Assembly (NCBI GenBank): GCA_043800255.1
Contig: JAZDNF010000009.1
Location: forward strand, 60,813 to 124,812
Length of the DNA: 64,000 bases
Reading direction: 5' to 3'
Origin: Candidatus Altiarchaeota archaeon
Lineage (GTDB): Archaea > Altiarchaeota > Altiarchaeia > IMC4 > SCGC-AAA252-I15
The notes below the pieces were generated by a model. It was not told where the DNA came from. It did no database searches and saw only the letters and a program-made list of their open reading frames with translations. A program made the translations under genes and the position numbers. Below are positions 5,214 to 64,000 of this stretch, one piece after another. Numbering within the stretch: position 1 is the stretch's first letter; each line of letters opens with the position of its first letter.

Positions 5214-5260
5214 TTTATCACAAATACCTTAATATTTACACATTATAGCTTATATATACA

Positions 5261-5776: not shown

Positions 5777-5794
5777 CTTCTGTCTGCAGAAACC

Positions 5795-10087: not shown

Positions 10088-10123
10088 AACATAAACTCTT
10101 AGAGAAGACAGAATAAAAACAGT

Positions 10124-11410: not shown

Positions 11411-11520
11411 CAAAAGCAGTCGACCCCAGTTGAAACAATCTCCACCATGTTTTATCATTAATCAATGTGTCGAAGCTAAATAAAAACATTTTTATCCTGC
11501 CTGTGTTAATATAGTAGAGT

Positions 11521-12549
11521 ATGGCTAAGCTTTTCTGGGTGCGAGCTGACCAGGACCAGCCCTGGGAGAAGAGGAAGAAGCTGGTGACGACAGCCCTGGA
11601 GTCCGGAGCTGACGCCGTTATGGTGAAGCCCGGCGAGGTCGAGACTGTGAAAGGCCTGGGACTGATTCATGTCATCTCAAACGACAGGAGTGCGGACATC
11701 AGGCTGGCGAAGGACGCATGCTACAAGGAGATTCACAACAAGGAGGATGAGCAGGATATCGTGAAACTTGGTAAAAACTCCAGGTACGTCATAGTGAACG
11801 CCAGGAACTGGAAGATAATCCCGTTGGAGAACATCATCGCAGCGCTGCGAGGCAAATGCAAAATCATCGTCGAGGTCGCTAACGCGAAAGAGGCTAAGGT
11901 CGCGTTGGAGACCCTTGAGGTGGGAGCGGACGGCGTCCTCGTCAACGCCGGTTTCTCTGAGATAAAAGGCGTTAAAACAATAATAGATGAGATGGCAACC
12001 GAGAAGCTTACCCTCGTCCCGGCCAGGATAACCAGGATAGAGCCTGCAGGCATGGGAGACCGCGTCTGCGTTGACACCACAAGCATGCTCAATGTCGGAG
12101 AGGGCATGCTCGTCGGCTCCCAGTCAAACGGCATGTTCCTCGTGCACTCCGAGAGCATAGAGACGGAGTATGTGGCAAGCAGGCCGTTCAGGGTGAATGC
12201 AGGAGCAGTGCACGCTTACGTGAGGATGCCTGAGGGCAGAACATCATACCTGAGCGAGCTCAAAGCAGGCAGCGACATTCTAGCAGTCGACTGGAAAGGC
12301 AGGACTAGGAAGGTCACGGTAGGACGCTCGAAGATAGAGAAGAGGCCGCTGATACTGGTCGAAGCCAAAGCAGAGAAGAGGAGCATAAGCACGATGCTCC
12401 AGAATGCTGAGACGATACTGCTTGTGGACAAAACGGGCAAACCTGTTTCAATCTCAAGGCTGAAGAAAGACGACGAAGTCCTGGCCTACGTAGAAGATGC
12501 CGGCAGGCACTTCGGGATGAAGGTCAAGGAGAGCATAGAGGAGAAATGA
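11521..12549 (+). CDS. aroB': 3-dehydroquinate synthase II (archaeal AroB')
   Basis: WKIIPLENIIA, GMGDRVCVDT, RPFRVNAGAVHAY, LQNAETI. Confidence 0.95.
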   Translation: MAKLFWVRADQDQPWEKRKKLVTTALESGADAVMVKPGEVETVKGLGLIHVISNDRSADIRLAKDACYKEIHNKEDEQDIVKLGKNSRYVIVNARNWKIIPLENIIAALRGKCKIIVEVANAKEAKVALETLEVGADGVLVNAGFSEIKGVKTIIDEMATEKLTLVPARITRIEPAGMGDRVCVDTTSMLNVGEGMLVGSQSNGMFLVHSESIETEYVASRPFRVNAGAVHAYVRMPEGRTSYLSELKAGSDILAVDWKGRTRKVTVGRSKIEKRPLILVEAKAEKRSISTMLQNAETILLVDKTGKPVSISRLKKDDEVLAYVEDAGRHFGMKVKESIEEK

Positions 12550-13508
12550 CCAAACTTGAGAGGGTCTCTGACATCATGATCAGGGACGTTAAGACAACAT
12601 CAGGAGATTCCGCAGTAGTGGACGCCGCCAGGATGATGACAGATGAGGGCATAAGCTCTGTCGTGGTTGTCGAGAAGGGCAAACTGGCTGGAATACTGAC
12701 CGAGAAGGACCTTGCGACAAAGGTTGTGGCCCTCGGGAAAACGCCATCCAAGGTCAAGGTGAAAGACGTTATGAGCTCTCCAGTGCTGTCCGCCAGCCCG
12801 GAGACGAGCATACTCGAGGCTGCGAAGCTTTTGGACAGGAAAGGCTACAAGAAGCTGCCGATAGTCTCCGATGGAAAGCTCATTGGCATAGTGACCGAGA
12901 CAGACCTGGCTCACGCGCTCAGATCAAAGGTCATTGAGATATCACCGGCAACTGAGAAGGGCGTGAAACCATCCAAATCTATCTGCGAACTCTCTCCTGG
13001 GATGTCTTATCTCATAAAGGAGCCGAAATCTGAGAGGAGCTTTGACGTATTCACAAACTGCCTTTCGCATGGTGTGCCAGGCCTCGTCTTCACGAGGACG
13101 CATCCGAAGAGGGTCAGGGAAACGTACGGGCTGAAGGACACGCCCGTATTGTGGCTTACGAACCTGACCAGCGAGGAGCGTTCGATATCGCCTTACAGTT
13201 TCAGCGAGCTCTCGATACTGGTCAGCAAATTCCTGAAGGAGGTTGACAAGTGCGTCATACTGTTGGACGGCCTCGAGTATCTGATAACCCATAACAGCTA
13301 CAATCAGACTCTCAAGCTGATACAGAACCTCAGGGACAAGGTGTCAGCCACGAACTCCCACCTGGTGATCTCCGTTGACGACAGGACGCTGAGCGACCAG
13401 CAGATCAAGCTGCTGGAGCAGGAGATGGACGTCATACTCTCCGAGCTGAAGACTGAGGAAGAGAAACTCGAATCCCTCAGGGATGAACTGAAGGGGTTAG
13501 ATAGGTAA
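12546..13508 (+). CDS. CBS-pair plus DUF835 (KaiC/RecA-like) fusion protein
   Basis: Two CBS domains, then GLVFTRTHP...VILLDGLEYLITHN; ATGA overlap with aroB'. Confidence 0.8.
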   Translation: MTKLERVSDIMIRDVKTTSGDSAVVDAARMMTDEGISSVVVVEKGKLAGILTEKDLATKVVALGKTPSKVKVKDVMSSPVLSASPETSILEAAKLLDRKGYKKLPIVSDGKLIGIVTETDLAHALRSKVIEISPATEKGVKPSKSICELSPGMSYLIKEPKSERSFDVFTNCLSHGVPGLVFTRTHPKRVRETYGLKDTPVLWLTNLTSEERSISPYSFSELSILVSKFLKEVDKCVILLDGLEYLITHNSYNQTLKLIQNLRDKVSATNSHLVISVDDRTLSDQQIKLLEQEMDVILSELKTEEEKLESLRDELKGLDR

Positions 13509-33142: not shown

Positions 33143-34186
33143 CTAGTCACATCGGAACCTGAAATTCAGATACTTTATCACGTTTTCGAACATGTCCCGG
33201 TTCGCAGGATCATATGAGGGGTCGCTTCCAGTATCCACGCTGCTTATTAGATAGGTGCCTTTGCCGTAATCCAGCTGTAGGAGATGAGCGTATTCCGTCG
33301 TGTCCTGAACATAAGCCAGGACGTCATACTCGGGAGGGAGATACATGAACGGTTCGCCCATCCTCAGATCGTCTGGATCGATTACGTTAGGATGCGAGAA
33401 CAGAGGCGTCTGTATTGCGACGTCGGTGTCATTGTCCTCGAAGGCTGCTAGGCCAAGGTAGTGGGGAAGCCACTGCCATGAGTTGTTCCAGTTTTCATAG
33501 TCCTGCGAGCTTGACCAGAGTTTCCCGCCTGCAAGGACAAAGTTCTTTATCGAGTCTTCCGCGGCGGAGGAGAGGTTACCGCCTGATGAAGCGTTGATGC
33601 TGTTCTGGGCCAGCCACAGGATATCGAAGCAACCGAGTCTGTTATAGTCTTCCAGGTAGGAGACGTTATCTGTGAAGGTGACGTTGATGTTACATGACTG
33701 GGAGATTCCGTCAAGCAGCAGCGGATCCATTCCATCCTCGTAGGGGCTGTAGAGGAGGACGTTGATATTGCCGCAGTTGGAGCGTATGCAAACTCTCCCG
33801 TCCTTGTTCATCACGCAGTTCCTCTCCGTTTCGCCCATTTTCAGGTCCAGGATGCTGACGTTCGAGACTATGACAGGCGTCGAAAGAACGTAGTTCTCCC
33901 AGGTTATCTCTACGATATTCTCGTACGCGCTTATATTATAGTCCCTGTAGCCGAAGATCCTCTCAGGGATCGAGAAGTACAGGTAGAAGCCGGAACCCTG
34001 CTCGCTTATGGTGTTGATATTGTCGGCGACGCTGGTCATAATCCGTCTCGCATCCAAGAACATCTTCACCTCATCGCTCTCCCTGCTCTTCTCAATGGAA
34101 GTCAGAACAACGACCACGAAGATGAGCATTATAATCCCGATAGTGAGGATAAGCTCCATGCTGGCCTGGGAGAGGTTGCTTTTCAT
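33143..34186 (-). CDS. Pilin-like protein with a C-terminal glutamine-amidotransferase-like fold
   Basis: MKSNLS|QASMELILTIGII; GGAGGT RBS upstream of 34186; FDILW...IKNFVLAGG...YGKGTYLI. Confidence 0.7.
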   Translation of the reverse strand: MKSNLSQASMELILTIGIIMLIFVVVVLTSIEKSRESDEVKMFLDARRIMTSVADNINTISEQGSGFYLYFSIPERIFGYRDYNISAYENIVEITWENYVLSTPVIVSNVSILDLKMGETERNCVMNKDGRVCIRSNCGNINVLLYSPYEDGMDPLLLDGISQSCNINVTFTDNVSYLEDYNRLGCFDILWLAQNSINASSGGNLSSAAEDSIKNFVLAGGKLWSSSQDYENWNNSWQWLPHYLGLAAFEDNDTDVAIQTPLFSHPNVIDPDDLRMGEPFMYLPPEYDVLAYVQDTTEYAHLLQLDYGKGTYLISSVDTGSDPSYDPANRDMFENVIKYLNFRFRCD

Positions 34187-34220
34187 GTGTTTTATACCTC
34201 CAATTGGATTTATTAGTAAT

Positions 34221-37133
34221 ATGAGGACAACCAAAAAAAACACCGTTTTCGTGGGCCTGTTTGTTGTTCTCATATGCCTGCAAAACGCTGCAGGCAGCCA
34301 GGACTGGCCGACATTCAAGCACGACCTGACCAGAACAGGATATAACGACTATTACTCTAACTTCTCCCTGAACGATTTAGACCTTATCTGGAGCTTCAAG
34401 ACAGGGGACATGGTAAGGTCCTCGCCTGTTGCAGCCGACTTCAACGGCGACGGGACGCTTGAGATAATAGTGTGCTCCTTCGACGGGAAATTGTACGGTT
34501 TAGACCATCAGGGGAACCTCCTGAAGACTTTTGACACTGGGAGCAGCATAAGGTCGACCCCAACCATAGACGACATAGACGGGGACGGCTGCAAGGAGAT
34601 AGCATTCGGAGCAGACAACGGAATATTCTATCTCCTTAACTGCACCGGAGACCTCCTATGGAACTTTCCAACGGCAGGGCCGATAGAATCATCGCCGCTG
34701 ATGTATAATTTCGACCAGACGAGCCAGAAGGAGATGATATTCGGGTCAGGTGACGGCAACCTGTACGCCCTCAACCATGAGGGGAAGTTAAAATGGAAGT
34801 ACCGCACGCAGGATATGATAAAGTCTTCCGTGGCTTTGGGCGACGCGACGGGGGACGGGGAAAGGAAACTCGTATTCGGGTCAGGTGACGGCATACTCTA
34901 CATCGTCTCTTACCCTCCTTACAAGATATGGCAGTTCCAGACGTCTGGTGCCGTGCAATCGACGCCGACCATATCAGACTACGATATCGACGGGAGAGTT
35001 GAGGTCATCCTGACGTCGACAGACTGGAAGGCGCAGGCAATCTACTATCACACTTACGCCGGAATCGGGGAGACGGGCCCAAGAGTCCTGAGAAAAGTCG
35101 GCAACAAGACGACGGTAACGCGGGAGGAGTATGTCTACTCAAAGTTCTCTTCCGAGTGGAATTACACGACAGGCAGCCACATAATCTCCTCCCCAGCTGT
35201 CGCCGACCTGGATGACGACGGCTACTACGAGATAATATTCGGATCAAACGACAACGTCTTATACGTCATCAACGCCTCGGGCTGGAAGGTCATGAGGTAC
35301 ACGACCAACGACCCCATCGAATCTACTCCCGCGATTGCAGACCTCAACGGCGACGGGACGCTTGAGATAATAGTGGGGTCGAACGACAGGAGACTGTATG
35401 TGCTGAACTATCCGATAGGCGGCAGATGGCTTTACACAACCAACGGTTCTGTCAGGTCATCCCCAGCCGTCGCTGACATCAACGGCGACGGATCGCTTGA
35501 GATAATAGTTGGATCAGACGACGGCAGCGTTTACGTTTTCGGGAGCAGGATGCTGTTCAGGCAGAGCAATGCGACCGCCTACTATCTTCTGGCTGAGGCA
35601 GCCTATAAGCAGAAGAAGACGGAGAACGTCAGAGAGTACCTGAACAGATCATTGGCAGCATATGATGACATAAAGGACCGGGCAGGGATATCGAAGATTA
35701 ACGCCTTCTACAAGAGGCTGGAAGCGGACGAGTATGCGAACATAGCGCTGGATTTCTACAACAGAAGCGATGTCGAAAACGCGACAGAGTACATAGAGAA
35801 GGCTGCGATAATCTACTCGTCCATAAACTATCAGGATGGGATCAACAAGGTCAAGACGCTCCTGCAGAGGTCATACGCAGACGCCGTCTACCTTGATGCC
35901 GATTACTATTACAGTATAGGCGACTTCGACAACTCCACATCCTATGCCCAGAGATCAGAGAACATATCGAAGGAGGTGCAATACACTGAGGGAGTCAACC
36001 GGGCGTTCAGGCTTGTCAACAGAACACAGAAGCACATGGAAGCTGACGGAATCTACTCGAACGCGATAAGAAGATACTATGAGAGGGGTTACAACGAGTC
36101 AATAACAAAAGATTTGGAATACGCGAGGTCGATCTATGTCGAGATAGACTTCGAGCTGGGTTTGAACGCGACAGACCGCCTCATAAAAAGGATGGACGCT
36201 GACAGGTATTACGATGCCAGCGTCCAACAGTACGCTGAGAAGGAGTATGTCGACGCGAAGGACCTGTCAGAGAGCTCAGTCCTGTTGTACGAGGAGATAA
36301 ACTACTCCAATGGCATTGAGAGGTCAAGACAGCTGCTTAATACAACCGAAAGCCACCTGCAGGCTGAGAACTATTATAACGATGCTGAGAGCCTCTACAA
36401 GGCGACGGACTTCATAAGCGCGCTGGAGGACGCCGAGAAGGCGAGGCTGCTTTACTTCCATGTCAAAGATGAGGAGGGGATACTGAAATCGCAACTCCTG
36501 ATACAAAGGTCTGAGGAGAGGATAAACGAAGAGGAGTCCAGGACGCCGAACATGGCCGAGATTGCCGTGATAGTGGTTGCTCTGGCATTCGCAGCCCTGC
36601 GGGTTAGGAAGTATAGGGCAGTGCACAGGAAACTTAAGAAAGATGATACAAGGCCTAAGGATGCGATAAGCGGAGAGACGCTGGGACGCAAAATCGTCGA
36701 GTCGCTCGACAAAAAGCCTTCTGAGACTGCCGATGCGCAGGAGCCTCAAATGGAGGCCGACCAGAAGGCACGTGAGGCCATTAAGCCACCGCCATCCGGG
36801 AGAAGGCTCCCCGTTTGGGTCGCCTCATTCTGGACGGAATTGAAGCTGGGTTTCCCAAGGTTAAGGTCTAACCCGCCGAAATTTGGCAGACCAGGCATGC
36901 CAGCCTGGATTGACAGGTTCAAGTATGAAGTGCTGGGCGGTTTCCCAGAATTAAAGCGCAATCCGCCGAAGATTTCAGCCCCTGAGATACCGCCGTGGAC
37001 TAAGAATTTCTACAAGCTGGCGAAGAAGAAGCTCGCTGGCAGGAGAAAGAGGACCCGCCTTGAGGGGAAGCCATTAGATGAGACGATAGATGAGATCCTT
37101 TCAAAGCACGAGAAAGGGCTTAGGGAACTGTAA
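34221..37133 (+). CDS. Secreted FG-GAP/PQQ-like beta-propeller, helical TPR-like stalk, single TM and cytoplasmic tail
   Basis: Signal peptide then DWPTFKHD; repeated SSPAVADxDGDG.LEIIVGS; TM AEIAVIVVALAFAAL followed by RVRKYR. Confidence 0.85.
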   Translation: MRTTKKNTVFVGLFVVLICLQNAAGSQDWPTFKHDLTRTGYNDYYSNFSLNDLDLIWSFKTGDMVRSSPVAADFNGDGTLEIIVCSFDGKLYGLDHQGNLLKTFDTGSSIRSTPTIDDIDGDGCKEIAFGADNGIFYLLNCTGDLLWNFPTAGPIESSPLMYNFDQTSQKEMIFGSGDGNLYALNHEGKLKWKYRTQDMIKSSVALGDATGDGERKLVFGSGDGILYIVSYPPYKIWQFQTSGAVQSTPTISDYDIDGRVEVILTSTDWKAQAIYYHTYAGIGETGPRVLRKVGNKTTVTREEYVYSKFSSEWNYTTGSHIISSPAVADLDDDGYYEIIFGSNDNVLYVINASGWKVMRYTTNDPIESTPAIADLNGDGTLEIIVGSNDRRLYVLNYPIGGRWLYTTNGSVRSSPAVADINGDGSLEIIVGSDDGSVYVFGSRMLFRQSNATAYYLLAEAAYKQKKTENVREYLNRSLAAYDDIKDRAGISKINAFYKRLEADEYANIALDFYNRSDVENATEYIEKAAIIYSSINYQDGINKVKTLLQRSYADAVYLDADYYYSIGDFDNSTSYAQRSENISKEVQYTEGVNRAFRLVNRTQKHMEADGIYSNAIRRYYERGYNESITKDLEYARSIYVEIDFELGLNATDRLIKRMDADRYYDASVQQYAEKEYVDAKDLSESSVLLYEEINYSNGIERSRQLLNTTESHLQAENYYNDAESLYKATDFISALEDAEKARLLYFHVKDEEGILKSQLLIQRSEERINEEESRTPNMAEIAVIVVALAFAALRVRKYRAVHRKLKKDDTRPKDAISGETLGRKIVESLDKKPSETADAQEPQMEADQKAREAIKPPPSGRRLPVWVASFWTELKLGFPRLRSNPPKFGRPGMPAWIDRFKYEVLGGFPELKRNPPKISAPEIPPWTKNFYKLAKKKLAGRRKRTRLEGKPLDETIDEILSKHEKGLREL
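36810..37019 (+). repeat. About 2.3 copies of a 30-aa repeat in the cytoplasmic tail
   Basis: PVWVASFWTELKLGFPRLRSNPPKFGRPGM / PAWIDRFKYEVLGGFPELKRNPPKISAPEI / PPWTKNFYKL. Confidence 0.85.
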
Positions 37134-54492: not shown

Positions 54493-55043
54493 CACTTGCC
54501 TTCCCATTTCCTGTAGAGTTTGTGTTCTATTCCGAGGACGTCGAGTATCTTTCCCACGATGAAGGCTGACATGTCGTCTGCCGTCTCAGGCTTGTGGTAG
54601 TATGCGACTTCGGGTGGGAGTATTATGGCTCCTCCCATCTTCAGCTTTCTCATGTTCTCTATGGCTGCCAGCGTGAGTGGGGTTTCTCTTGGCACTACTA
54701 TCAGCTTCCATCCCATCTTGAGCATGTTCTCCGCGGCCCTCGTCACCAGGTTATCGGAGTAGCCGTTCGCGACTCCTGAGAGCGTCTTCATCGAGCATGG
54801 CACTATGACCATCCCGTCAACCTTGTATGAGGAGGAGGCTATCTTCGCCATCAGGTTGTCCTCATCGTATGAGCGTGATGCTAGCTTCCTTATCTCCTTC
54901 GGGCTCTTGTTCTCCTCGAACCGGGCGACATCCTCCGCTGCTGAGGTCATTATCAGGTGAGTCTCATGGCCTCTGAGCTCTTCCAGCAGCCTCTGACCTA
55001 GTATTATCCCTGAGGCGCCGGTGATGGCTATTATCAGCTTCAT
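54492..55043 (-). CDS. ubiX: Flavin prenyltransferase UbiX
   Basis: AITGASG, ASSS, PCSMKTL, RETPL, AYYHKP. Confidence 0.95.
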   Translation of the reverse strand: MKLIIAITGASGIILGQRLLEELRGHETHLIMTSAAEDVARFEENKSPKEIRKLASRSYDEDNLMAKIASSSYKVDGMVIVPCSMKTLSGVANGYSDNLVTRAAENMLKMGWKLIVVPRETPLTLAAIENMRKLKMGGAIILPPEVAYYHKPETADDMSAFIVGKILDVLGIEHKLYRKWEGK

Positions 55044-55103
55044 CCTTCATTATTATGGTGAGGGGTTATTTATTCTTGTCCTCCTGTGATTATTCAATAG
55101 ACT

Positions 55104-56453
55104 ATGGAGAAGCAGGTCAGGTGGGTTTACAGGGCTGGAAAGGGCGGCAGTATGGAGAGCATCCAGGAGGAGGCTGGCCTGTTCAAGCCTATGGGAGATG
55201 CGCAGAAGTGGTATCGTAAGAGGTTTGTCAGCCCCATTGCCGTGGAGAGCCTGCCTGCCATCAAGGAGCATCCTGGTGAGTTCTTCCAGAAGCAGGCTGA
55301 TGGATTGTATCATAAGCTCGAGGTCGAGCCGTATGACATCAGAGAGGAGTTTGCGAGGGTGAGGCCTGATGACATCCTCAACCCGGGGGAGGAGCAGCAG
55401 GTCTCATGGAGTCCGTCTGACAGGGGAGTGCAATCTTCACCAGAGTTGGCCTCTGCCAGCGGCGTGGAGTCTTCCAGCGGGTTGATTTCCGACAGGGAGA
55501 GGGGGTATATCGGCAGTTTCCTGTCGGGTTTGAGGGGGTCGATAAAGTCGGAGCCTGACGGCGTGAGAAAGAGCGTTTCGAAGCTTATCAAACAGATCGA
55601 TAAGGCGTTTGGTAGGCGTGAGACCTTGGATGAGTTCGAGGCCGGCCTGTCTAAACTGTCAGTGGACGATCAGTTGAAGCTGTCGGCAGCCTTGAGTGGG
55701 GAGGTCCGGTCTGACAGTTGGTTCAGCGGCAGCCAGGATAAGGCTGATAGGAGCGGGTTCATGTCAAGGTTGTATAACATCAACCTGAAGTCCATCGGCG
55801 GTAAGTCGAAGATAAAGGCTGACATCCCTGACGAGTTTAAGGGGGCGTTTGAGGTCTTGAGGCCTGATTTTTTCAGCATGATGGATCGGGACTCTTTAGC
55901 TCTCATAGAGCAGATGGAGAGGGCGAGGTCTGCGAACATAGCATCCTCCGATCCTTCGGCGGTGAATGCCATGATGGAGCTTTCGCTTCCGATGTTGAGG
56001 GCGCAGATTGAGGAGTCTTTGCGGTTCTTGGACAGGCCTGACATTGGGAAGAGCACGGGGGATGAGTTTGACAATATCATGGGAATCTACGGCATCGCTA
56101 AGACGGCGGGCATAACGCATAAGAACGAGCTGAGCCTTTTGAAGCTTTCGGAGAGGCCGGAGCATCTGGTGGGGGTTTTCAAGTTTTTTGACAGCCGGAT
56201 TAAGGGAGTGCAGGAGGAGGCCGGCGTCGGCGATGATTTCGTGAGTTCTTTCATGAGGAGGAGGGCGTTCTTCTTTGACTCGAATGGGATGCCTTATAAG
56301 CTGTCGGCTGAAGACTTGAAGGAGATAGTAAAGTCTAAGCGGGGGGAGGATGATGTCCGGCGGATTGGCACTAATCGGGAGGCTGATGACGTGCATCGTC
56401 TCGGCACCAACTTCAAAGCCTTGGGGAAGCTGATAAAGGTCTATTCCCGCTGA
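55104..56453 (+). CDS. Orphan 449-aa protein
   Basis: Long ORF whose stop overlaps the trm1 start; no family recognised. Confidence 0.65.
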   Translation: MEKQVRWVYRAGKGGSMESIQEEAGLFKPMGDAQKWYRKRFVSPIAVESLPAIKEHPGEFFQKQADGLYHKLEVEPYDIREEFARVRPDDILNPGEEQQVSWSPSDRGVQSSPELASASGVESSSGLISDRERGYIGSFLSGLRGSIKSEPDGVRKSVSKLIKQIDKAFGRRETLDEFEAGLSKLSVDDQLKLSAALSGEVRSDSWFSGSQDKADRSGFMSRLYNINLKSIGGKSKIKADIPDEFKGAFEVLRPDFFSMMDRDSLALIEQMERARSANIASSDPSAVNAMMELSLPMLRAQIEESLRFLDRPDIGKSTGDEFDNIMGIYGIAKTAGITHKNELSLLKLSERPEHLVGVFKFFDSRIKGVQEEAGVGDDFVSSFMRRRAFFFDSNGMPYKLSAEDLKEIVKSKRGEDDVRRIGTNREADDVHRLGTNFKALGKLIKVYSR

Positions 56454-57562
56454 TGATGGACGTTTCCGAGTTTTCTGAGGGCAGCGTTCGGCTGAAGATC
56501 CCCGCAGTCGAGAGGCTCCTTAGGAAGAACCCGGTCTTCTTTAATCCTCTTATGGAGTTGAACCGTGATATCTCTGTAGCCTCCTGCAGACTTCTTAAAC
56601 CAAATGACTTCTGCGACGCTCTCGCGGGGAGCGGGGCGAGGGGCTTCCGTGTCGCCAGGGAGGCTGGCGTCGACGTCACCTTGGTTGACATGAATTCCAC
56701 GGCTTGTGAATTCATGGAGGAGAACGCGAAACTTAACAAGTTAAAGGTGAATGTCGTCAACGATGACTGCACTCATTTCTTGTCGGGGAGGAAGTTCGAT
56801 TATATCGACGTTGACCCGTTCGGCCCTCCGGTCCGCTATCTGGACTCTGCCATCCGAGCCTGCAGGAAGAGGTCTTTTCTCGGCGTCGCCGCCACGGACA
56901 CCAGCGCTCTCTGCGGCACCTATCCGCGGGCGTGCAAACGGAAGTATGATTCCGTCTCTCTCCGGACTGACTGTTATGATGAGCTTGGTCTTCGCATCCT
57001 TCTCGGTTTCATCGCCCGGTCTGCGGTCCGTTATGATTATGGCGTCTCGTTTCTCTTTTCCCACTGTACGAGGCATTATTTTAGGACTTACGCGGAGTTG
57101 AACCGCGGCCGTTCTCATGTTAGAAAATCTCAGGACAGTCTCGGCTTCGTCCAGCATTGTTTCAAGTGCCTTTGGAGAGGTTACAGGAAACTTGAGGAGC
57201 TGGAGCAAACGTGCAAGTGTGGTTCTCCTCTCTCGACTGCAGGCCCCTTATGGACTGCCGAATTCGCCGACCCTGTCTTCTGCGGGAACCTCATAGGGGA
57301 GCTTGAGTCCGGGTCTTATGGCACAAAGTCCTCAGCTGTGAAGCTCATCAGCGCAGTCTCCGATGAGCAGCCTATCCTCACACCCTATTATGACCTGCAC
57401 AAGATAGCTAAGCGGGAGAGGAAGCCTGCACCAGCCCGGGACGCCTTCTTCAAGAAGGTAACCGGTGGAGGCCACAGGATAACGCGGACTCATTTCTCAG
57501 ACCTCGGCATCAGGTCTGACGCTGACGTGGACGAGATTGCAGGATATCTGGGCAAACTTTAG
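56453..57562 (+). CDS. trm1: tRNA (guanine26-N2)-dimethyltransferase
   Basis: FFNP.MELNRD, LAGSGARG.R, DVDPFG, TDTSALCG, CKCG, GPLW, RTHF. Confidence 0.95.
   Translation: MMDVSEFSEGSVRLKIPAVERLLRKNPVFFNPLMELNRDISVASCRLLKPNDFCDALAGSGARGFRVAREAGVDVTLVDMNSTACEFMEENAKLNKLKVNVVNDDCTHFLSGRKFDYIDVDPFGPPVRYLDSAIRACRKRSFLGVAATDTSALCGTYPRACKRKYDSVSLRTDCYDELGLRILLGFIARSAVRYDYGVSFLFSHCTRHYFRTYAELNRGRSHVRKSQDSLGFVQHCFKCLWRGYRKLEELEQTCKCGSPLSTAGPLWTAEFADPVFCGNLIGELESGSYGTKSSAVKLISAVSDEQPILTPYYDLHKIAKRERKPAPARDAFFKKVTGGGHRITRTHFSDLGIRSDADVDEIAGYLGKL
57424..57562 (+). repeat. Copy 1 of the trm1 3'-end direct repeat (in-gene copy)
   Basis: 99/118 nt identical to 59095-59212 by manual alignment. Confidence 0.92.
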
Positions 57563-58224
57563 CTCATGCGCATCGCTTTTCTTATCTTTCCGAGGTTGAA
57601 GTTGGGATGGGTTCTATTCTTGTCTTTGATCATCTTCAGTTCATTCAGCGCCATCTCCGGGCTTTTATCCCATTTTTTGAGGCTGCTTTTTATGACCGTC
57701 CAGTCAAATGTGGGGGAGTTGTAGTTCACGATGATATTGTATATGTCTTCCATATCCTGGGATTTCGCATGGTATACCAGGTCTGCTGAGCTTCTCTCCA
57801 GGAGCATCTTCGTCGCCAGCAGGTCCTCAACTCTCGGGAGTGGTAGGCTGTCCAGTATCTGGCTGCGGTCCCATAGTTCCGAGTCGAATTCCAGGGTGTC
57901 GCATACGCCTCCAACCCACAGTTCAACGTAGTTTTTTATCTCTTCTTCGAGGGGCGACTTGGAGAACAGGTATCTCTTGAAATGGTATTCAGTGTTCTCT
58001 CCCTCGAAATGCCAGCCGATCCTCCTCAGGTTGTTTTTGATCTTCCGCAGAACGTCTTTTGGTACATCCTCTCTGATGACGAAGTCGATGTCCTTGGTCG
58101 ACCGGGGTTGGACTAGGGCGGACACGGCCACGCCGCCTATGATGACGTGTTCTATGTGGAATCTTTTGAGTATCCTTGATATCCGTATGGCTGTCTCCTG
58201 CGCTTTGTCGGCTTCGATTTTCAT
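57559..58224 (-). CDS. Nucleotidyltransferase, AbiEii/DUF6036-like (putative toxin)
   Basis: IIGGVAV...PRSTKDIDF; PRVEDLLATKM; QDMEDI. Confidence 0.75.
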   Translation of the reverse strand: MKIEADKAQETAIRISRILKRFHIEHVIIGGVAVSALVQPRSTKDIDFVIREDVPKDVLRKIKNNLRRIGWHFEGENTEYHFKRYLFSKSPLEEEIKNYVELWVGGVCDTLEFDSELWDRSQILDSLPLPRVEDLLATKMLLERSSADLVYHAKSQDMEDIYNIIVNYNSPTFDWTVIKSSLKKWDKSPEMALNELKMIKDKNRTHPNFNLGKIRKAMRMS

Positions 58225-58994
58225 AGGATGCCAAGCTTTTCTTTTATCGGTTTTATCAGCTCTGGGGGGAGGCCCATCCTCTTCTTATCGGCATGAGAGA
58301 GGTCTGGGAGGTTCGGCGCATATGGTCTCAGCCCGGATAGGATGCCGATGATGAAGTCTTTGACGTGCCATTTTTCTGATCTTTCGATCACGTATGCCCA
58401 GTCGGTGTTTTGTTCCCGGAGCATGATGGAGAGCAGGTCTTCTAGGGGGAGCTGGCCTTTTTGTACTAGGTGCGCGTATGCGAGTATCGCGTCTTCGCGT
58501 TCGGGTATTCGGACGCCTCCGTAGTCTGTTTTTTTGTAGAAGAGTTTGTATTCTCTGACGTAGTCGGCCTTTTTGTCCTTGGTTTGTTTTTCTGCGAATA
58601 CAAAGACGCGCTCGTCGTATCTGTCGAACCCGTACAGTTTCGTCAGAAAGGGCCCGACGAGGACCGTGTCTATCCCCTCTCTTCTGAATTTGCCCGACAT
58701 CTCCAGCAGCCTGTCTTCGATCCCTGTTGTCTGTTCTTTTGAGGTTTCGATGAGTTCTTTGAATTTTCGCATGAATTTTGAGCCCATCACCGGCTGGTAT
58801 TTGGGGTATAGGCCTTCTCCGACGGGCTCTACGAGGCCTGCTTCTGCGAGGGTGTCTATCGCAGTTGCCGCCGTCGACGTGCTTGTCTTCGTCTGCGACG
58901 CGTAGTCTTTCTTGTGCATCGGCTGCGGGTGCTCTACCATGTACGCCAGGATCTTTACCGTGGGTTTTTCCCCTAATATGTCGGAAACCTGCAT
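58221..58994 (-). CDS. Winged-HTH plus degenerate NTase-like protein (putative antitoxin/regulator); start re-set to 58994
   Basis: wHTH (TSTAATAIDTLAEAGLVE); TTTAAATA box about 30 nt upstream of ATG 58994; ATGA overlap with the NTase gene. Confidence 0.65.
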   Translation of the reverse strand: MQVSDILGEKPTVKILAYMVEHPQPMHKKDYASQTKTSTSTAATAIDTLAEAGLVEPVGEGLYPKYQPVMGSKFMRKFKELIETSKEQTTGIEDRLLEMSGKFRREGIDTVLVGPFLTKLYGFDRYDERVFVFAEKQTKDKKADYVREYKLFYKKTDYGGVRIPEREDAILAYAHLVQKGQLPLEDLLSIMLREQNTDWAYVIERSEKWHVKDFIIGILSGLRPYAPNLPDLSHADKKRMGLPPELIKPIKEKLGIL

Positions 58995-59094
58995 CTTGCG
59001 TATATACATAGGGTGAGGCGAGTATTTAAATGTTTCGATTTTAAGAAACAATTGTTTTCGAACATGAAAACATTCTCGGACAGCGTAAGAAGAG

Positions 59095-59224
59095 GCCTGC
59101 ACCAGCCCGGAACACCTTCTTCAAGAAGGTAACGGATGGCGGCTACAAGATAACGCGAACACACTTCTCAGACTTGGGCATACGATGCGACGCCGATGTG
59201 GACGAGATTGCAAAACTAATCTGA
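59095..59224 (+). pseudogene. trm1: Displaced, diverged trm1 3' end (copy 2), with no start codon
   Basis: Encodes PAPARNTFFKKVTDGGYKITRTHFSDLGIRCDADVDEIAKLI*; in-frame stop upstream at 59042-59044. Confidence 0.9.
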
Positions 59225-59246
59225 ACAACAAAAGAAGGTTCATAGT

Positions 59247-59594
59247 TTGGCTGAGACTGCGGGCAAGGGGGGCGAAAAGTATAAGGTCAAAATCTGTCCC
59301 AGGTGCGATGAGAAGAATTCTCCGAGTGTTGATGTCTGCCAGAAGTGCGGGACCACATTGGACATAAAAACCCTCCTGGAAGAGGATGAAAGAAGAAACA
59401 CTACTATGGGCGTGTTGTCGACGATACTCTCGGATGACCGGGTTAAGGAGGCGATAGCTGCCAGCATAAAATCGCAGGAAGAACACGCCCGAAAAACCCA
59501 ACAGGAGACAATATCAGACCAACTCATCAAACTACTCAACCCCGGAGCATACGACCTACAACTGACAACACAACCCACAAAAACCAAAAAATGA
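59247..59594 (+). CDS. Double zinc-ribbon protein resembling the C-terminal tail of archaeal tyrosine integrases (possible remnant)
   Basis: KICPRCDEKN...CQKCGTTLD followed by a helical tail; TTG start; lies just after the repeat copy. Confidence 0.5.
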   Translation: MAETAGKGGEKYKVKICPRCDEKNSPSVDVCQKCGTTLDIKTLLEEDERRNTTMGVLSTILSDDRVKEAIAASIKSQEEHARKTQQETISDQLIKLLNPGAYDLQLTTQPTKTKK

Positions 59595-59693
59595 TAAAAA
59601 CAGAGTCCCGGGAGAGGTTTTACTGTTGCTTTAAACCCCTAGTTATTACTTTAGTTTCCATATATAAATACGTATATGCTAAAGTTTATACTA

Positions 59694-59852
59694 ATGAAAC
59701 TCCAAGAATCAAAGGGCAAGTACAGCATATTCCTACCGACAAGAATAGTCGAAGGATTTAGTTGGAAGAAAGGCCAAGAGCTTGAGGTTAAGATACTTGG
59801 TAAAGATAGATTAGAAATTAGGAAAAGACCGCTTAGAACTCAAGAGAGTTAA
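59694..59852 (+). CDS. AbrB/MazE/SpoVT-like small DNA-binding protein (52 aa; not in the ORF track)
   Basis: MKLQESKGKYSIFLPTRIVEGFSWKKGQELEVKI pattern; TATATAAATA at 59661-59670. Confidence 0.7.
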   Translation: MKLQESKGKYSIFLPTRIVEGFSWKKGQELEVKILGKDRLEIRKRPLRTQES

Positions 59853-59927
59853 ATAAACAGATTTTAATTAAAGTATTCTCTAATCTTTTAAGGATATAGT
59901 TTTTTTATAACACTTGGAGGGGTTGGA

Positions 59928-60920
59928 TTGGCAAAGGAATTTAAGAAAAAAACTGATTTTTCAGTCCCTAGAGGTTCAACAGAAGTAGATTCTGATAAAT
60001 GGGAGGATGACACATATGCTTCAAAAATATCCTATGAGATTACCCAACAAGGACGAGAAGGGATAAGAGTATTGTCAGCTAAAAAAACAAACTATACTCC
60101 TCATTATGGAGTATGGTTAGACAAAAAAATAGATTATTCTAATTGGTATAAGTGGTTCTCTTCTGCTTTTAAAAAATTAGCCAGAATATTTGGAAAAAAG
60201 ATAGAAACAGCGGAAGATATAGTCCAAAGATATGAAAAGGAATTGCAAGATATGTCAAAAACAATCACTGAACTTACTTTAAAATATGAAAGAGCAAAAA
60301 ACGAATTGGAACAAAATAAAAAAGACTTTGAATTAGCAAGAAAATTAGTTGACAATATTGATGTGTATGAGAAAGGATTAGAGGAAATACGAGATGCTAT
60401 TAATAAGTCATATGATGAGAATTCAAGACTAGAGGGATTAATAAAACAAAAAATCATCGAGAATAGATGGGTTCTTGGACTAGACTGTGAAGTTCAAGCC
60501 AAAGAAAGACGTATAGACAATCAGACTTCACTTGATTTGCATATTAAAACTGATTTAGGAGAAGATAGAGTTTTTGAATTCAAAAGTCCGAATATCCGTC
60601 CTTTCTTTAAAGAGAATCAGCAGGGTAGGTTTCACATAAATTCTGAAATTGCCGAGGGATTAAATCAATTAATGATATATCTAACAAAAATTGATTTTTG
60701 GGGTAGAATCAAAGAGGGTGGCATTTATGGAGTGACAAAACCTGCAGGGGTTGTAATAACGGGCTATAAACTTCCGGAGGAAGATATTGATGTTCTTAAA
60801 ACATGGAATTTTCATTTAAGACCACATATAAGATTCGTTACTTACGATGAACTCATAAGAAGTGCTGAAAATAATCTGGACATTATTAGAAAAGCCAGGC
60901 AATTGGACAAGGTAGATTAA
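59928..60920 (+). CDS. sduA: Shedu (SduA/DUF4263)-like nuclease with an N-terminal domain and coiled coil
   Basis: NRWVLG, D...VFEFKSP, GLNQLMIY, GVVITG, HIRFVTYDELI; GGAGG RBS and TTG start. Confidence 0.75.
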   Translation: MAKEFKKKTDFSVPRGSTEVDSDKWEDDTYASKISYEITQQGREGIRVLSAKKTNYTPHYGVWLDKKIDYSNWYKWFSSAFKKLARIFGKKIETAEDIVQRYEKELQDMSKTITELTLKYERAKNELEQNKKDFELARKLVDNIDVYEKGLEEIRDAINKSYDENSRLEGLIKQKIIENRWVLGLDCEVQAKERRIDNQTSLDLHIKTDLGEDRVFEFKSPNIRPFFKENQQGRFHINSEIAEGLNQLMIYLTKIDFWGRIKEGGIYGVTKPAGVVITGYKLPEEDIDVLKTWNFHLRPHIRFVTYDELIRSAENNLDIIRKARQLDKVD

Positions 60921-62149
60921 TGATTGAAGATAAATCTAAAATTGGGGTTCTCTGTAGAAAATTCATTGAGAATTATGATGAGTATACGAAAGTAGATTTC
61001 AAGTCTACGCTTGATTTATCCTCCTCTGAGAATAAAGCCGAACTCTGTAAATTGATTTGTGCGATTGGTAACTCAAATAGCCCTAAATATGATAACATTG
61101 GCTATATAATCCTAGGTGCTAAACGTGGTGAACTCATTGGCGGTATTAATGAACTAGCTAAGGATTCTACCTCAGCTAGTATCCGTCAGATTGTTGCTTC
61201 TTTTTTAGATTATCCCGTAAAGTTTGAGATTCTGGCCTTTAAGGATGAGGTAAAAGGGTTATGGGGAGCTATTGAAATCTTCGATGACCCCCAGAATCGA
61301 CCTCTTAAATTCAAGCGTTCTGTTGGGACATTGGGCATAAAAAAAGATGATGCATTCATCCGGGATGGTGACTCAATTAGACTAGCAAATCCTCGGGAGA
61401 TAGAAGAAATTACTAGTCGAAAATTCACATTAAGAGTTCCGTCACTCAATATTGCCTTCTTTGATGGTAAGGATTACACTAAATTCCTACTCGTTGAGCC
61501 AGAAGTAGTAAAAATTATTGAAAAAAAGATGCCAGAAACACCTCTTCTAAAGCCGTCTCCAATGATAGAGCGATTCTCTGGGCTATCAGAGACAGTTAAT
61601 AGGATTAATGCTGTTTGTGCCATTATCCCTAGACCATTATGGGTGGGTAAAAGCCAAAGCGAATATGAAGCTGAGATGGGAGAATATAGAGAGTTAATGC
61701 GACAACTGCCAATCCTCACTTTGGTTTTGAGGAATGACGGAACAGCTCGTGCGAGAGATATTGATGTAACAATAAGTTTTCCACGAGAGATTGAAATTAT
61801 GTTGGAGGACGATATTCCAGATGAACCATCTAAACCTGGGCGTTCTCTATTACTGAAACCGTCATATACTCCCTTACCCGACTTTCTTGGTATTAGCCCC
61901 ACATTAGAAGAACTAGATGAAGAAAAGTTACTGTCATTTTATGTTAAAACGCTAAAGCATACAAATAAAGCAGAGTGTAGATTTGCCATAACAAATGAAA
62001 CTCCTGAGGGGAATTATTCTATTAAGTATGAGGTTCATTGTGAGGAGGATATCAAACCCACAAAGGGAGAGTTAAAGCTAATTGTTAAAAAGAAAATTAG
62101 AGAAGAAATTAAATGGATTTCAGATGGGGGGATACACTTAAGTAAATGA
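60920..62149 (+). CDS. Schlafen/AlbA_2 domain protein with a C-terminal Ig-like domain
   Basis: EYTKVDFK, ELCKLICAIGN, GYIILG, FIRDGDSIRLA; C-terminal LVLRNDGTARARDIDVTISFP...YSIKYEVHCE; TAATG coupling. Confidence 0.8.
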   Translation: MIEDKSKIGVLCRKFIENYDEYTKVDFKSTLDLSSSENKAELCKLICAIGNSNSPKYDNIGYIILGAKRGELIGGINELAKDSTSASIRQIVASFLDYPVKFEILAFKDEVKGLWGAIEIFDDPQNRPLKFKRSVGTLGIKKDDAFIRDGDSIRLANPREIEEITSRKFTLRVPSLNIAFFDGKDYTKFLLVEPEVVKIIEKKMPETPLLKPSPMIERFSGLSETVNRINAVCAIIPRPLWVGKSQSEYEAEMGEYRELMRQLPILTLVLRNDGTARARDIDVTISFPREIEIMLEDDIPDEPSKPGRSLLLKPSYTPLPDFLGISPTLEELDEEKLLSFYVKTLKHTNKAECRFAITNETPEGNYSIKYEVHCEEDIKPTKGELKLIVKKKIREEIKWISDGGIHLSK

Positions 62150-62379
62150 ACCCCTGACAATTCTATTTATTGGGTGGGTTCTTTGGCACTTTGTCCCTGG
62201 CTTTGGGTGCAATCCTTCTGTGGAAGGGCAACGTCCTTGGGTGGGGTCTTGTTGCAGTCGGAATTGCGAACTACGTAAGAATCTGGTCGGGGATTAAGGA
62301 GATGAAGCATGAGGCATCCGTTTATTTAGATTTTTCATCTCCTCTTTTGCCGTGTCAACAAGCAGATCATTTACCGTAA
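62146..62379 (+). pseudogene. Small 2-TM membrane protein gene with an in-frame TGA at codon 4
   Basis: ATG 62146 overlaps the Schlafen stop; reads MNP*QFYLLGGFFGTLSLALGAILLWKGNVLGWGLVAVGIANYVRIWS. Confidence 0.55.
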
Positions 62380-62827
62380 CACTCATAACTATGGAGATAA
62401 ATATAACCATCAATAATCCATGGATAGTAGCCCTCTTGTCTAGAGGTGTCGGAAGGTCATCAATCAATATCTGTGTCATTATGACAGCCACTAATAGTGT
62501 CATTGGGATTATGTAAATGAACATTATCTTCAAGATTAGGTTTTTTTCCCAATACACCCAATACTCATTCTTCATACCCCCCAGCATCTTGTGGGTAAAC
62601 ATGACACAGAAAACAAAGCAATCTACAATATAAATCGATACAAAGATGAAAGTACTTATCAAAATAGATATTATAAGTTGAGAACTATCTAGTGGTTTGA
62701 AACCAAAGAATGCACCGTGCAGAACATATCCCACCGCAACAAATCCAAAGATTATAAAAGGTATGGAAATCAGCTTGTCTGGTTCTTTAAATACCTCCTG
62801 GAAATTTTTGAGAGATTCGTCCCACAT
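62294..62827 (-). CDS. Multi-pass membrane protein (about 4 TM) inserted between duplicated gene ends
   Basis: MWDESLKNF start with an AT-rich upstream region; four hydrophobic segments. Confidence 0.65.
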   Translation of the reverse strand: MWDESLKNFQEVFKEPDKLISIPFIIFGFVAVGYVLHGAFFGFKPLDSSQLIISILISTFIFVSIYIVDCFVFCVMFTHKMLGGMKNEYWVYWEKNLILKIMFIYIIPMTLLVAVIMTQILIDDLPTPLDKRATIHGLLMVIFISIVMSVTVNDLLVDTAKEEMKNLNKRMPHASSP

Positions 62828-62888
62828 AGTATATACTGAATATTTCGTGTATAAAAAACTCTTCACACATACGATAATCCTATTGTTG

Positions 62889-62984
62889 AAAGACAATGTC
62901 ATCGGCTGGGGTCTTATCGCCGTCGGGATTGCGAACTATGTGAGGATCTGGTCGAGAACTAAGATGGAAAAATCTGGAGATTGA
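62889..62984 (+). repeat. Second, diverged copy of the 3' half of the small membrane gene
   Basis: 62889-62954 vs 62224-62289: 53/66 nt identical; KDNVIGWGLIAVGIANYVRIWS vs KGNVLGWGLVAVGIANYVRIWS. Confidence 0.88.
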
Positions 62985-62993
62985 GGATTAGAG

Positions 62994-63179
62994 ATGGAAG
63001 TTAAGATTGAAAAATGTAGTTATCCGAACTGTAATGATAGCGCTGAACATAAGCATCATATTCTTGGAAAAGATAACCTTGACCCAAAGAAGCGGATGAG
63101 AATAGCAGGGTTATGTAAACGTCATCATGAAGACATCACATACTTAAATGGCTTTTGTGTAGTGATAATTCTGCATTAG
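62994..63179 (+). CDS. Small HNH-like Zn-binding protein (possibly truncated)
   Basis: CSYPNC...HKHHILG...LCKRHH. Confidence 0.5.
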   Translation: MEVKIEKCSYPNCNDSAEHKHHILGKDNLDPKKRMRIAGLCKRHHEDITYLNGFCVVIILH

Positions 63180-63181
63180 AA

Positions 63182-64000
63182 TTATATTGTGCAGGGATTA
63201 TCTTCTAACGTATGAGAGTCTACCATACTTACTAATTTTTGAAATGCGCATAAACCCTTAGTAGTACAGTATGGATCATATATCACCTTAACGGGAGATA
63301 ATGATCTACATTCAATCTTCTCGTAACTTTGACCACAATCTAAATTAGTACGACAAGGGATTTCACCAGGTTCTCTTTCTATTGGTGATGCTACACCATC
63401 AGCTTTAGCAATCTCTTCAACATACCATTCTATGTCCTTAGAAGCCTGGGTTGCATAATAGGTTCCAGTTGTAATATGGTCTTGTATAAAATCATCACAG
63501 TATTCGTCCAATTCATACAAGGCTAAGTAAAGACCTGCTGAACCCTCTGTTAAATATTCATGCACCGTTGAATACTTCGCTGGAGCTTTCAGTTCCTTAA
63601 CTTTATCTGCTATCATGAGTGACCTACCAGACAAACCATTGGTCAGGATACCACCTTCAATTACTTTGCACATTTCTGTTCTGGTTATTCCGCCTGATGC
63701 ATAGGTAGTAAGAACTCCAACAGTACTGGTTGAAATACTGTTTATCTCATCTAAAAGGACACGAACGTTGTTTTTGTAAGTACTGGCTTCCTGTTCTAGA
63801 GTTAGACTGGTAGTCTGTTCCATCGTAGTTTGCCTTACAGTGTTGGTGTGGGTCGGAGTTGGATCATCTCTCCCAAGCAACGCAAATATTACCATAATCG
63901 CCATAATTATAAGACCTACTTTCAGCAGATTCTGAACCGATTGTGCAAAACTTATTCTCTTTTTTGGAGTCCCTAGTTTTTTAGATGGTTCAACATCTTC
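63182..64000 (-). CDS. Membrane-anchored extracellular protein with a Cys-rich C-terminus (5' end outside the window)
   Basis: Frame stays open to 64000; TM LLKVGLIIMAIMVIFALLG; CRTNLDCG...C...PYC...C. Confidence 0.7.
   Translation of the reverse strand, partial: EDVEPSKKLGTPKKRISFAQSVQNLLKVGLIIMAIMVIFALLGRDDPTPTHTNTVRQTTMEQTTSLTLEQEASTYKNNVRVLLDEINSISTSTVGVLTTYASGGITRTEMCKVIEGGILTNGLSGRSLMIADKVKELKAPAKYSTVHEYLTEGSAGLYLALYELDEYCDDFIQDHITTGTYYATQASKDIEWYVEEIAKADGVASPIEREPGEIPCRTNLDCGQSYEKIECRSLSPVKVIYDPYCTTKGLCAFQKLVSMVDSHTLEDNPCTI

Follow-up and report, generated by a model that had tools for sequence, protein, structure and literature searches.

Duplication of the trm1 3' end around a recombinase-less, toxin-antitoxin-like operon in an Altiarchaeota contig

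Background

Insertions that duplicate the end of a gene while leaving that gene complete have been described in several settings. Bacterial dusA-specific integrase elements insert in the 3' end of their target and restore the gene. Cis-mobilisable elements (CIMEs) and integrase-less satellites are exemplified by the streptococcal ICESt-type accretion and by the tycheposon islands. In polymorphic-toxin loci of the rhs/cdiA kind, a fragment of the core gene stands before each orphan tip, and homologous recombination, without a dedicated recombinase, is thought to be responsible. Fungal mitochondrial mobile open reading frames (ORFs), like that of atp6 of Allomyces, insert at gene 3' ends together with a duplicated C-terminal coding segment. 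Here we analyze a stretch of 64,000 nucleotides from a Candidatus Altiarchaeota archaeon (contig JAZDNF010000009.1, positions 60,813 to 124,812; hereafter 'the window'), in which the 3' end of trm1, the gene for tRNA (guanine26-N2)-dimethyltransferase, occurs a second time 1.67 kb downstream, on the far side of a small cassette. Gene ends that are duplicated around inserts are usually read as the footprint of an integrase; here the footprint is clear, yet it encloses a single operon without a recombinase.

The architecture is of a known kind, in which an insertion duplicates the end of a gene and the gene is restored. With the gene-restoring 3'-end integrative elements, both those at bacterial dusA and the thaumarchaeal ones (PMC6563490), it shares the direct repeat at the 3' end, the substituted tail that keeps the gene complete and the old tail at the far end, as well as the occurrence of empty sites in relatives (in our case at analogous loci) and of tandem arrays. 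It differs in that there is no integrase in or near the insert, which is a single operon of 1.5 kb, and in that one cassette family uses the tails of two genes. Moreover, the median length of thaumarchaeal att sites is 17 bp (PMC6563490), whereas the repeat in the window spans 131 nt at 82% identity. The att-flanked cargo without a recombinase, found in series at a gene end, is reminiscent of the CIMEs and integrase-less satellites in tandem accretion arrays, although for those an integrase-bearing partner is known at the same site and such a partner was encountered neither here nor at five analogous loci. The rhs/cdiA loci are alike in that the incoming segment carries a copy of the resident gene end plus new downstream genes and pushes the old end downstream as a vestige; there, however, the exchanged tip is itself functional (toxin plus immunity), whereas here the gene encodes a housekeeping enzyme and the tail is only a handle for unrelated cargo. 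The fungal elements likewise bring a foreign allele of the last codons and an ORF to the gene end and retain the native end downstream, but their cargo is a homing endonuclease, which explains its own spread, whereas that of the archaeal loci is a putative toxin-antitoxin (TA) pair, an ATPase or uncharacterized proteins. What sets the archaeal loci apart is the minimal, recombinase-less operon as unit, the long and diverged allelic tails, the serial arrangement, and the use of several housekeeping genes in Altiarchaeota and DPANN-like metagenome-assembled genomes (MAGs). A limited literature search yielded no prior description of such tail-flanked cassettes.

Results and discussion

The duplicated 3' end of trm1

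The trm1 gene of the window (56453-57562, plus strand) is intact. It encodes 369 amino acids and matches Pfam family PF02005 (TRM) with an E-value of 4e-87 over profile positions 1-372 of 376; its best relatives (73%, 66% and 63% identity) belong, where named, to the Altiarchaeota or Altiarchaeales. We found that positions 57411-57541 on the plus strand (tail A, the proximal copy inside trm1, the stop codon of which lies at 57560-57562) recur as a direct repeat at 59082-59212, with an offset of 1671 nt and 108 of 131 nt identical (82%, ungapped count). For the span 57424-57541, given in an earlier note on this DNA that had been made from the sequence alone, we obtained the same count of 99/118 identical nt. 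Considering the E-value of 3.9e-31 that the pair received in a self-blastn of the window, the repeat cannot be attributed to chance. The distal copy, tail B (59082-59224, plus strand), continues to a stop codon of its own at 59222-59224. In the frame of trm1 it reads ...RKKRPAPARNTFFKKVTDGGYKITRTHFSDLGIRCDADVDEIAKLI followed by the stop, and its 44 codons contain neither an indel nor an internal stop. Given the stop codons upstream and the lack of an in-frame start, tail B is an untranslatable in-frame relic, the displaced 3' end of trm1. The 40 aligned codons include 23 identical ones, 10 with synonymous and 7 with non-synonymous differences (six of the latter inside the range of the earlier note), and the extreme C-termini differ, as they do between orthologues. 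The layout is real and att-like, with a restored gene and repeats that resemble attL and attR.

Two trm1 ends on one contig could also stem from a chimeric assembly, in which two strains with different trm1 ends and downstream regions were joined in series. The contig indeed derives from a metagenome of uncultured Altiarchaeota, and its GC content drops sharply ~400 nt after tail B. However, the sequence at the 59081/59082 junction has nothing in common with trm1 upstream of 57411 by which a de Bruijn graph might have been bridged, the longest identical blocks within the repeat measure 16 and 19 nt, and a mis-join via such a block would swap contexts rather than duplicate them. The same architecture was moreover recovered in nine contigs from different samples at another gene, MTHFR, and in unrelated MAGs (see below), which makes a chimera very improbable.

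The most similar part of the repeat is found at 57424-57462 (plus strand), where 37 of 39 nt are identical in blocks of 16 and 19 nt. The earlier note had placed the core of an integration site here, on account of the two mismatches in 39 nt, the 19-nt block and the palindrome CCTTCTT-C-AAGAAGG within it (57444-57458, and again from 59115). These observations were all reproduced, but the excess of identity is only marginal (2/39 mismatches versus 17/79 in the remainder of the repeat; Fisher p = 0.03) and the palindrome is unremarkable. The window holds eight perfect 7+1+7 palindromes, including six besides the two tail copies, and the codons involved merely encode FFKK; the palindrome was therefore rejected as a recognition site. 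A palindromic core site is thus not established, and 57424-57462 is at most a weakly supported candidate for the crossover region.

The cassette between the tails

The DNA between the tails is filled by two overlapping genes on the minus strand and their promoter, with no spare DNA; the cargo is a complete, TA-like operon rather than a decayed island. The gene next to trm1 (57559-58224, minus strand) encodes a 221-residue AbiEii/MenT-like nucleotidyltransferase, a putative toxin. It is oriented tail-to-tail with trm1, and the stop codons of the two overlap (TTAG). The assignment is based on profile matches at threshold level: 22.8 bits against Pfam AbiEii (cut-off 22.5, E = 9.7e-5), E = 3e-4 for NTP_transf_5, E = 0.002 for the PADLOC model of AbiEii, and E = 8.7e-4 over about 50 residues of the AbiEii/AbiGii toxin in PDB entry 8an4. 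The protein also carries a GG...DID motif. The second gene (58221-58994, minus strand) specifies a winged-helix (wHTH) protein of about 257 residues, a putative antitoxin or regulator, with weak matches to the helix-turn-helix profiles DUF7342, HTH_IclR and Csa3-like. Its mechanically called ORF reaches 59102; the start used here was set by homology to the 258-residue partner in the MTHFR-linked relatives described below (L083-L091). Its ATGA overlap with the nucleotidyltransferase start suggests translational coupling.

The promoter/operator region comprises 87 nt (58995-59081, minus strand). Its TATA-like box, TTTAAATA (about 59023-59031), precedes the ATG by some 28 nt; a 46-nt imperfect palindrome (59029-59074) overlaps this box and is a plausible, putative operator for autoregulation of the operon. 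In GC content at third codon positions (GC3) the cassette genes (0.64-0.67) are equal to trm1 (0.65), in keeping with a closely related donor.

The nucleotidyltransferase family is rare, with 15 relatives at E <= 1e-3 among 1.84 billion representative sequences. Among 5.8 billion proteins we recovered only three clusters of homologues, at 69-71% amino acid identity, and in all three the gene is paired with the 258-residue wHTH gene. The known AbiE and MenAT systems consist of an AbiEii/MenT nucleotidyltransferase toxin and a wHTH antitoxin, AbiEi. The cassette resembles these type IV systems in its two-gene operon with the wHTH gene first, the 4-nt gene overlap, the GG...DxD motif in the nucleotidyltransferase and the palindrome over the promoter; it differs in that the matches are at threshold level only and the family is very rare. 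This likeness suggests that the pair may have TA activity. Structure models were of no use in this respect, as the AF2 model of the nucleotidyltransferase (alignment of four sequences) reached a pLDDT of 37 and a model of the wHTH protein (single sequence) a pLDDT of 41.

Two alleles of one gene end

Given the direct repeats that flank the insert, one may ask whether the cassette entered by transposition, non-homologous end joining or replication slippage and copied ~130 nt of trm1 in situ, after which the distal copy decayed. Such a duplication followed by neutral decay predicts a ratio of non-synonymous to synonymous differences (pN/pS) of at least 0.5 and a relic that evolves faster than the functional copy. 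For tails A and B we obtained pS = 0.41 and pN = 0.088 (NG86), a ratio of 0.21, and the same ratio was found for six analogous tail pairs pooled (pS = 0.45, pN = 0.096). Tested against 0.5, the binomial probability is 1.3e-4 for the pooled pairs and 0.048 for the window pair alone. In addition, both tails are equally distant from the closest outgroup (L081, 80/120 identical nt each) and, at the positions where they differ, carry the same number of derived sites (9 vs 9), so that evolution was not faster in the distal copy than in the functional one. The 44 uninterrupted codons of tail B, the orthologue-like differences at the extreme C-termini and the lack of terminal inverted repeats and of a transposase likewise speak against a local origin.

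Based on the coding-type divergence and the equal outgroup distance, we regard the tails as two alleles rather than as a local duplication that subsequently decayed: most of the divergence arose while both were functional gene ends in different lineages. The earlier claim that both copies evolved as coding ends is thereby borne out. The outgroup comparison was also tried as a means to tell the native from the imported tail, and was abandoned for that purpose, since both are equidistant. A local origin may apply to some cases, as at one of the loci treated below (L054), where the sister species is more distant from the tails than these are from one another and where the distal tail carries a frameshift; for the window, duplication in situ is highly unlikely.

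The same layout with other cargo

A self-blastn of 92 sequences (1.12 Mb, confined to the neighbourhoods of trm1 and MTHFR) for direct repeats of 35-400 nt spaced 150-10,000 nt apart revealed comparable arrangements. The second trm1 case was encountered in an AT-rich unclassified archaeon (L052). Its trm1 (9932-11116) is followed on the opposite strand, with overlapping stops, by a gene for an AAA_14/DUF4143 ATPase (11113-12444) and then by a second trm1 tail (12526-12609), which is in frame and 79-83% identical to the first; the duplication as a whole spans 11033-12609, and the two tails are equidistant from three outgroups. The corresponding empty site is present in L045, where trm1 is directly followed by a homologue of the gene that comes after the distal tail of L052. 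In the native arrangement trm1 and this convergent gene of 234 codons overlap by ~30 nt (L051, 6624-6654) or are separated by a 26-nt spacer (L045, 5358-5384), and the displaced tail of L052 has kept the overlap.

Two further cases concern other genes. In a member of the Nanobdellati (L054, 10130-11541) ~365 nt of a GTPase tail are duplicated around an ORF of 118 codons, with a distal copy that is frameshifted and has drifted towards AT; in L045 the GTPase gene is directly followed by the zinc-ribbon gene that comes after the distal tail of L054. The L054 tails resemble one another more than they resemble L045, so this event was recent, or possibly local. In L062 (2638-4084) a 62-nt tail of an M50 protease gene, 92% identical between the copies, encloses ORFs of 232 and 91 codons. 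The cargo of L054 and L062 lacks family matches, and the tail length varies from ~55 to 365 nt across the cases. The same layout is thus found at trm1, GTPase and M50 protease genes in DPANN-like archaeal MAGs.

A related cassette at MTHFR

A relative of the cassette itself was found in L083 (Logan SRR12400136), also an Altiarchaeote judging by the relatives of its MTHFR. This cassette is 69% identical to that of the window at the nucleotide level and has the promoter motif ATTTAAATACT in common with it, at the same distance from the start, yet it adjoins the stop codon of MTHFR and not trm1. Instead of the 59029-59074 palindrome of the window, L083 carries another repeat at this place in its cassette (TTTTTTTATTTTTGrTAA, in two copies). 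L083 contains three copies of the last ~60 nt of MTHFR (6415-6474, 4846-4905 and 4197-4256), which bound first the wHTH/nucleotidyltransferase cassette and then a HicA/HicB-like pair. The order within the array (4197-6474) and beyond is MTHFR, tail 1, wHTH/nucleotidyltransferase, tail 2, HicB/HicA-like, tail 3, a secreted-looking ORF of 167 codons and a native gene of 86 codons. All three tails are in frame, read MPAGK..ALVKILEN(I/M) up to the stop, and resemble the tails of different related lineages. Upstream of the 86-codon gene there is a possible remnant of a fourth tail, 8 nt in length (CATCTAAT).

Nine contigs from different samples (L083-L090) share this structure at >99% identity, and in a strain of 88% nucleotide identity (L091) there is a single cassette, with two MTHFR tails. 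We considered the distal tail of L091 as a hybrid of tails 2 and 3 of L083; it is a mosaic with too few informative sites, and the idea was dropped. Five related lineages (74-90% MTHFR identity) possess a single tail, in several cases directly followed by the conserved neighbour of 86-89 codons; the empty-site loci are L095, L094/L093, L096/L097 and L100-102. In L103 the same spot is occupied by a gene of 364 codons without a duplicate of the tail.

Small cassettes with their own promoters, TA modules among them, that stand in series between repeats as in L083 call to mind an integron, with the repeated tails in the role of attC-type folded recombination sites. Integrons have indeed been reported in archaeal MAGs (PMC9668308). 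Nevertheless, no IntI-like gene is present among the 57 window ORFs scanned, the repeats are gene-specific host coding alleles, and as single strands the tails show no better folding than shuffled sequence (z from -0.9 to +1.8); the R'/R'' core motifs were inspected by eye only. An integron-like array is therefore a reading to which we attach hardly any credence.

Is trm1 a preferred target?

The earlier note had proposed trm1 as an archaeal integration hotspot. To evaluate the gene as a target we surveyed 80 other trm1 loci, one genome per species, about 40 of them from Altiarchaeota. A second trm1 tail within 10 kb was present in one of the 80, L052: a tblastn search with 113 Trm1 tails gave a credible second copy only there (E = 0.001), which was then confirmed by self-blastn. 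Other genes of these loci show four events per about 1,100 genes, from which 0.29 cases are expected in 80 trm1 loci; the probability of at least one is 0.25. One in 80 is thus within the background, trm1 is not enriched and the layout is not specific to it. A trm1-specific hotspot is not established, the more so as a related cassette sits at MTHFR, and a target gene is not to be called a hotspot from a single case. The survey did provide an independent partial trm1 duplicate, that of L052, albeit without an adjacent integrase.

The surroundings of trm1 are variable in their own right. In Altiarchaeota, ubiX is the conserved upstream neighbour, and the usual downstream neighbour, in 21 loci (within L001-L040), is a wHTH gene of 120 codons that lies about 100-200 nt 3' of trm1; it is recognizable by the motifs FWKEP...YHNMLKRL(K/R)xAGMIEK and is absent from the whole window. 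A comparison of L003 and L005, two genomes that are 87-92% identical, revealed a 4.16-kb insert with glycosyl-/methyltransferase-like genes (L003, 11080-15243, versus L005, 4035-4057), located directly after the trm1 stop and before the 120-codon gene, without a duplicated tail and without a recombinase. Variable cargo downstream of trm1 in Altiarchaeota is therefore real, whereas a dedicated trm1 attachment site is not shown.

A mobile form was searched for as well. Degenerate DNA patterns of the trm1 tail gave no matches in viral contigs, and the cassette proteins gave only matches to a 33-residue motif (L098, L099) or nothing in such contigs. An alignment of 15 tails was too variable for use, and the sole match of a 4-tail alignment in JGI metagenomes (L092) was discarded as a chance match in a high-GC bacterial contig. 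A publication that seemed to link trm1 to an integration site (PMC11529989) was set aside too, as it concerns Trm11 on an unrelated element.

How the cassette may have arrived

Considering the two alleles and the restored gene, a crossover between gene tails is well supported as the origin of the layout, and we hold with good confidence that it was brought about either by host recombination or by an integrase acting in trans. Of these we lean, tentatively and at slightly less than even confidence, towards C-terminal displacement, that is a Campbell-type single crossover carried out by the homologous recombination machinery of the host. The incoming module of ~1.67 kb would have consisted of a foreign allele of the last ~47 trm1 codons and the self-contained nucleotidyltransferase/wHTH operon with its promoter. 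As a circularized or one-sided fragment from a related Altiarchaeote it would have recombined with the resident trm1 via the homology of the gene tail, and not at a dedicated trm1 site. Thereafter trm1 would be completed by tail A, imported at least in part along with the cassette; the cassette would come next, and the resident tail B would remain 1.67 kb downstream as an untranslated relic. In a single crossover the proximal tail would be a resident/imported hybrid and the distal tail the reciprocal hybrid, followed by native downstream DNA. We infer the direction of this event (which tail is native), the circular intermediate and the enzyme.

Host recombination is favoured for several reasons: in six loci no recombinase is found in cis or nearby; the tails of two different genes occur with one cassette family; the cargo is unrelated and the tail length variable between cases; and the same spots carry insertions without duplicated tails (L003 versus L005; L103). 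Such insertions are expected of general recombination beside conserved genes and not of one dedicated site. More explicitly, none of the 57 ORFs scanned across the window has a Pfam match to an integrase, transposase or other recombinase, and none was found within the available flanks of the five loci with analogous tail duplications.

Site-specific integration, with the trm1 tail as attB, the cassette as a cis-mobilisable or decayed mini-element and the integrase acting in trans, lost or located beyond the window, is possible if doubtful. It accounts for the attL/attR-like repeats, the restored gene and the near-identical 39-nt stretch, and it is in line with the habits of other archaeal elements, which use 3'-distal portions of protein genes and form tandem arrays (14/68 for such 3'-distal insertions and arrays in Thaumarchaeota; PMC6563490). 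It would also be consistent with the coinciding tail boundaries at about 60 nt in the MTHFR array, the second trm1 case in L052, the additional foreign DNA that follows tail B and runs off the window, and the low efficiency expected of homologous exchange at 80% identity. In addition to the missing integrase, however, native genes directly follow the distal tail in L052, L054 and L091, without a tandem partner element there; the cassette family is combined with the tails of two genes; the tails differ severalfold in length between cases, within the range given above; trm1 is not enriched as a target; and no attP with a trm1 tail turned up in viral contigs or JGI metagenomes. The integration-site reading of the earlier note thus retains its att-like repeat, its restored gene and its empty sites at analogous loci, but lacks a recombinase. 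As to relatives with empty and occupied sites, these were obtained for the analogous loci (L052 vs L045/L051; L054 vs L045; L083/L091 vs L095, L094, L096 and L100) and not for the species of the window.

Several points weigh against displacement by host recombination as we propose it. Little efficiency is to be expected of homologous recombination over 131 nt at 82% identity; of the 39 nt at the 5' side 37 are identical, a near-identity like that of an att core; and the independent distal MTHFR tails all start about 60 nt before the stop, which suggests a defined site instead of fragments with random ends. No circular form, donor genome or empty site was found for this species, of which the closest public Trm1 is 73% identical, and the variable region extends past the right edge of the window, where an integrase could still be encoded. 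The TA role of the cargo, furthermore, is based on weak profile matches, and the structure models could not be used. The recurrence of ~80% identity between tails may reflect survivorship: near-identical repeats would lose the insert by recombination, and TA cargo would penalize that loss.

Flanking genes and the low-GC island

Downstream of tail B a zinc-ribbon ORF of 115 codons (59247-59594, plus strand; Pfam zinc-ribbon matches) has near-host GC content and a GC3 of 0.55. No homologue was found downstream of trm1 in the 80 other loci, and the ORF may be the native neighbour, or else a further element may begin with it. From 59600 to the end of the window at 64000, without strand assignment, the GC content is 32-41% versus 53% for the host. 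This island includes genes for a MazE/AbrB-like protein (59676-59852), a Shedu SduA_C nuclease-like protein (59928-60920) and a Schlafen/AlbA_2 protein (60920-62149), in addition to several unknowns, and looks like a foreign defence island. Its position after tail B implies more foreign DNA downstream of trm1. The island contains a second tail-type repeat (62211-62298 versus 62876-62963; 88 nt, 78% identical, pN/pS 0.15) with about 51% GC within DNA of 35% GC. It flanks an opposite-strand gene for a membrane protein of 202 residues (62294-62902). What the repeat encodes is the end of a small two-helix membrane ORF; its proximal copy lacks a stop of its own, which has been lost, and reads into the cargo.

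On the other side of trm1 an ORF of 449 codons without family match (55104-56453) is situated between ubiX and trm1, its stop overlapping the start of trm1. Many Altiarchaeota loci have ubiX immediately next to trm1, and distant homologues of this ORF (25-28%) were found upstream of trm1 only in L081; the upstream side of trm1 is therefore variable too. Apart from a few without Pfam match, the other ORFs of the window are housekeeping genes. Look-ups of the exact protein sequences of Trm1 and of the last ORF of the window, aimed at the remainder of the 357,846-bp contig, returned no entry. The window contains no tRNA gene, an Rfam scan of 55000-64000 gave nothing relevant, and a promoter/terminator scan was uninformative as its models are of the bacterial type. 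Internal repeats of 59-62 nt (80-84% identical) at 34413-35509 belong to a gene for an FG-GAP/beta-propeller protein of 1041 residues (34008-37133) and represent ordinary domain repeats.

Implications

A broader and more speculative idea, which we consider rather unlikely as it stands, is that Altiarchaeota and DPANN-like archaea harbour an integrase-free form of cassette mobility, in which modules carry a host-gene tail of 20-50 codons as a handle for recombination. If true, modules such as TA pairs, ATPases and membrane proteins would pop in and out by host recombination with the host gene kept intact, and would pile up as integron-like arrays separated by gene tails; the trm1 locus would then be one instance of a general way in which compact archaeal genomes gain genes. 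If general, the phenomenon also supplies a simple search signature, namely a diverged copy of the last codons of a gene within a few kb downstream, and it would explain how small defence and addiction modules spread and persist in compact archaeal genomes with few recognizable mobile elements.

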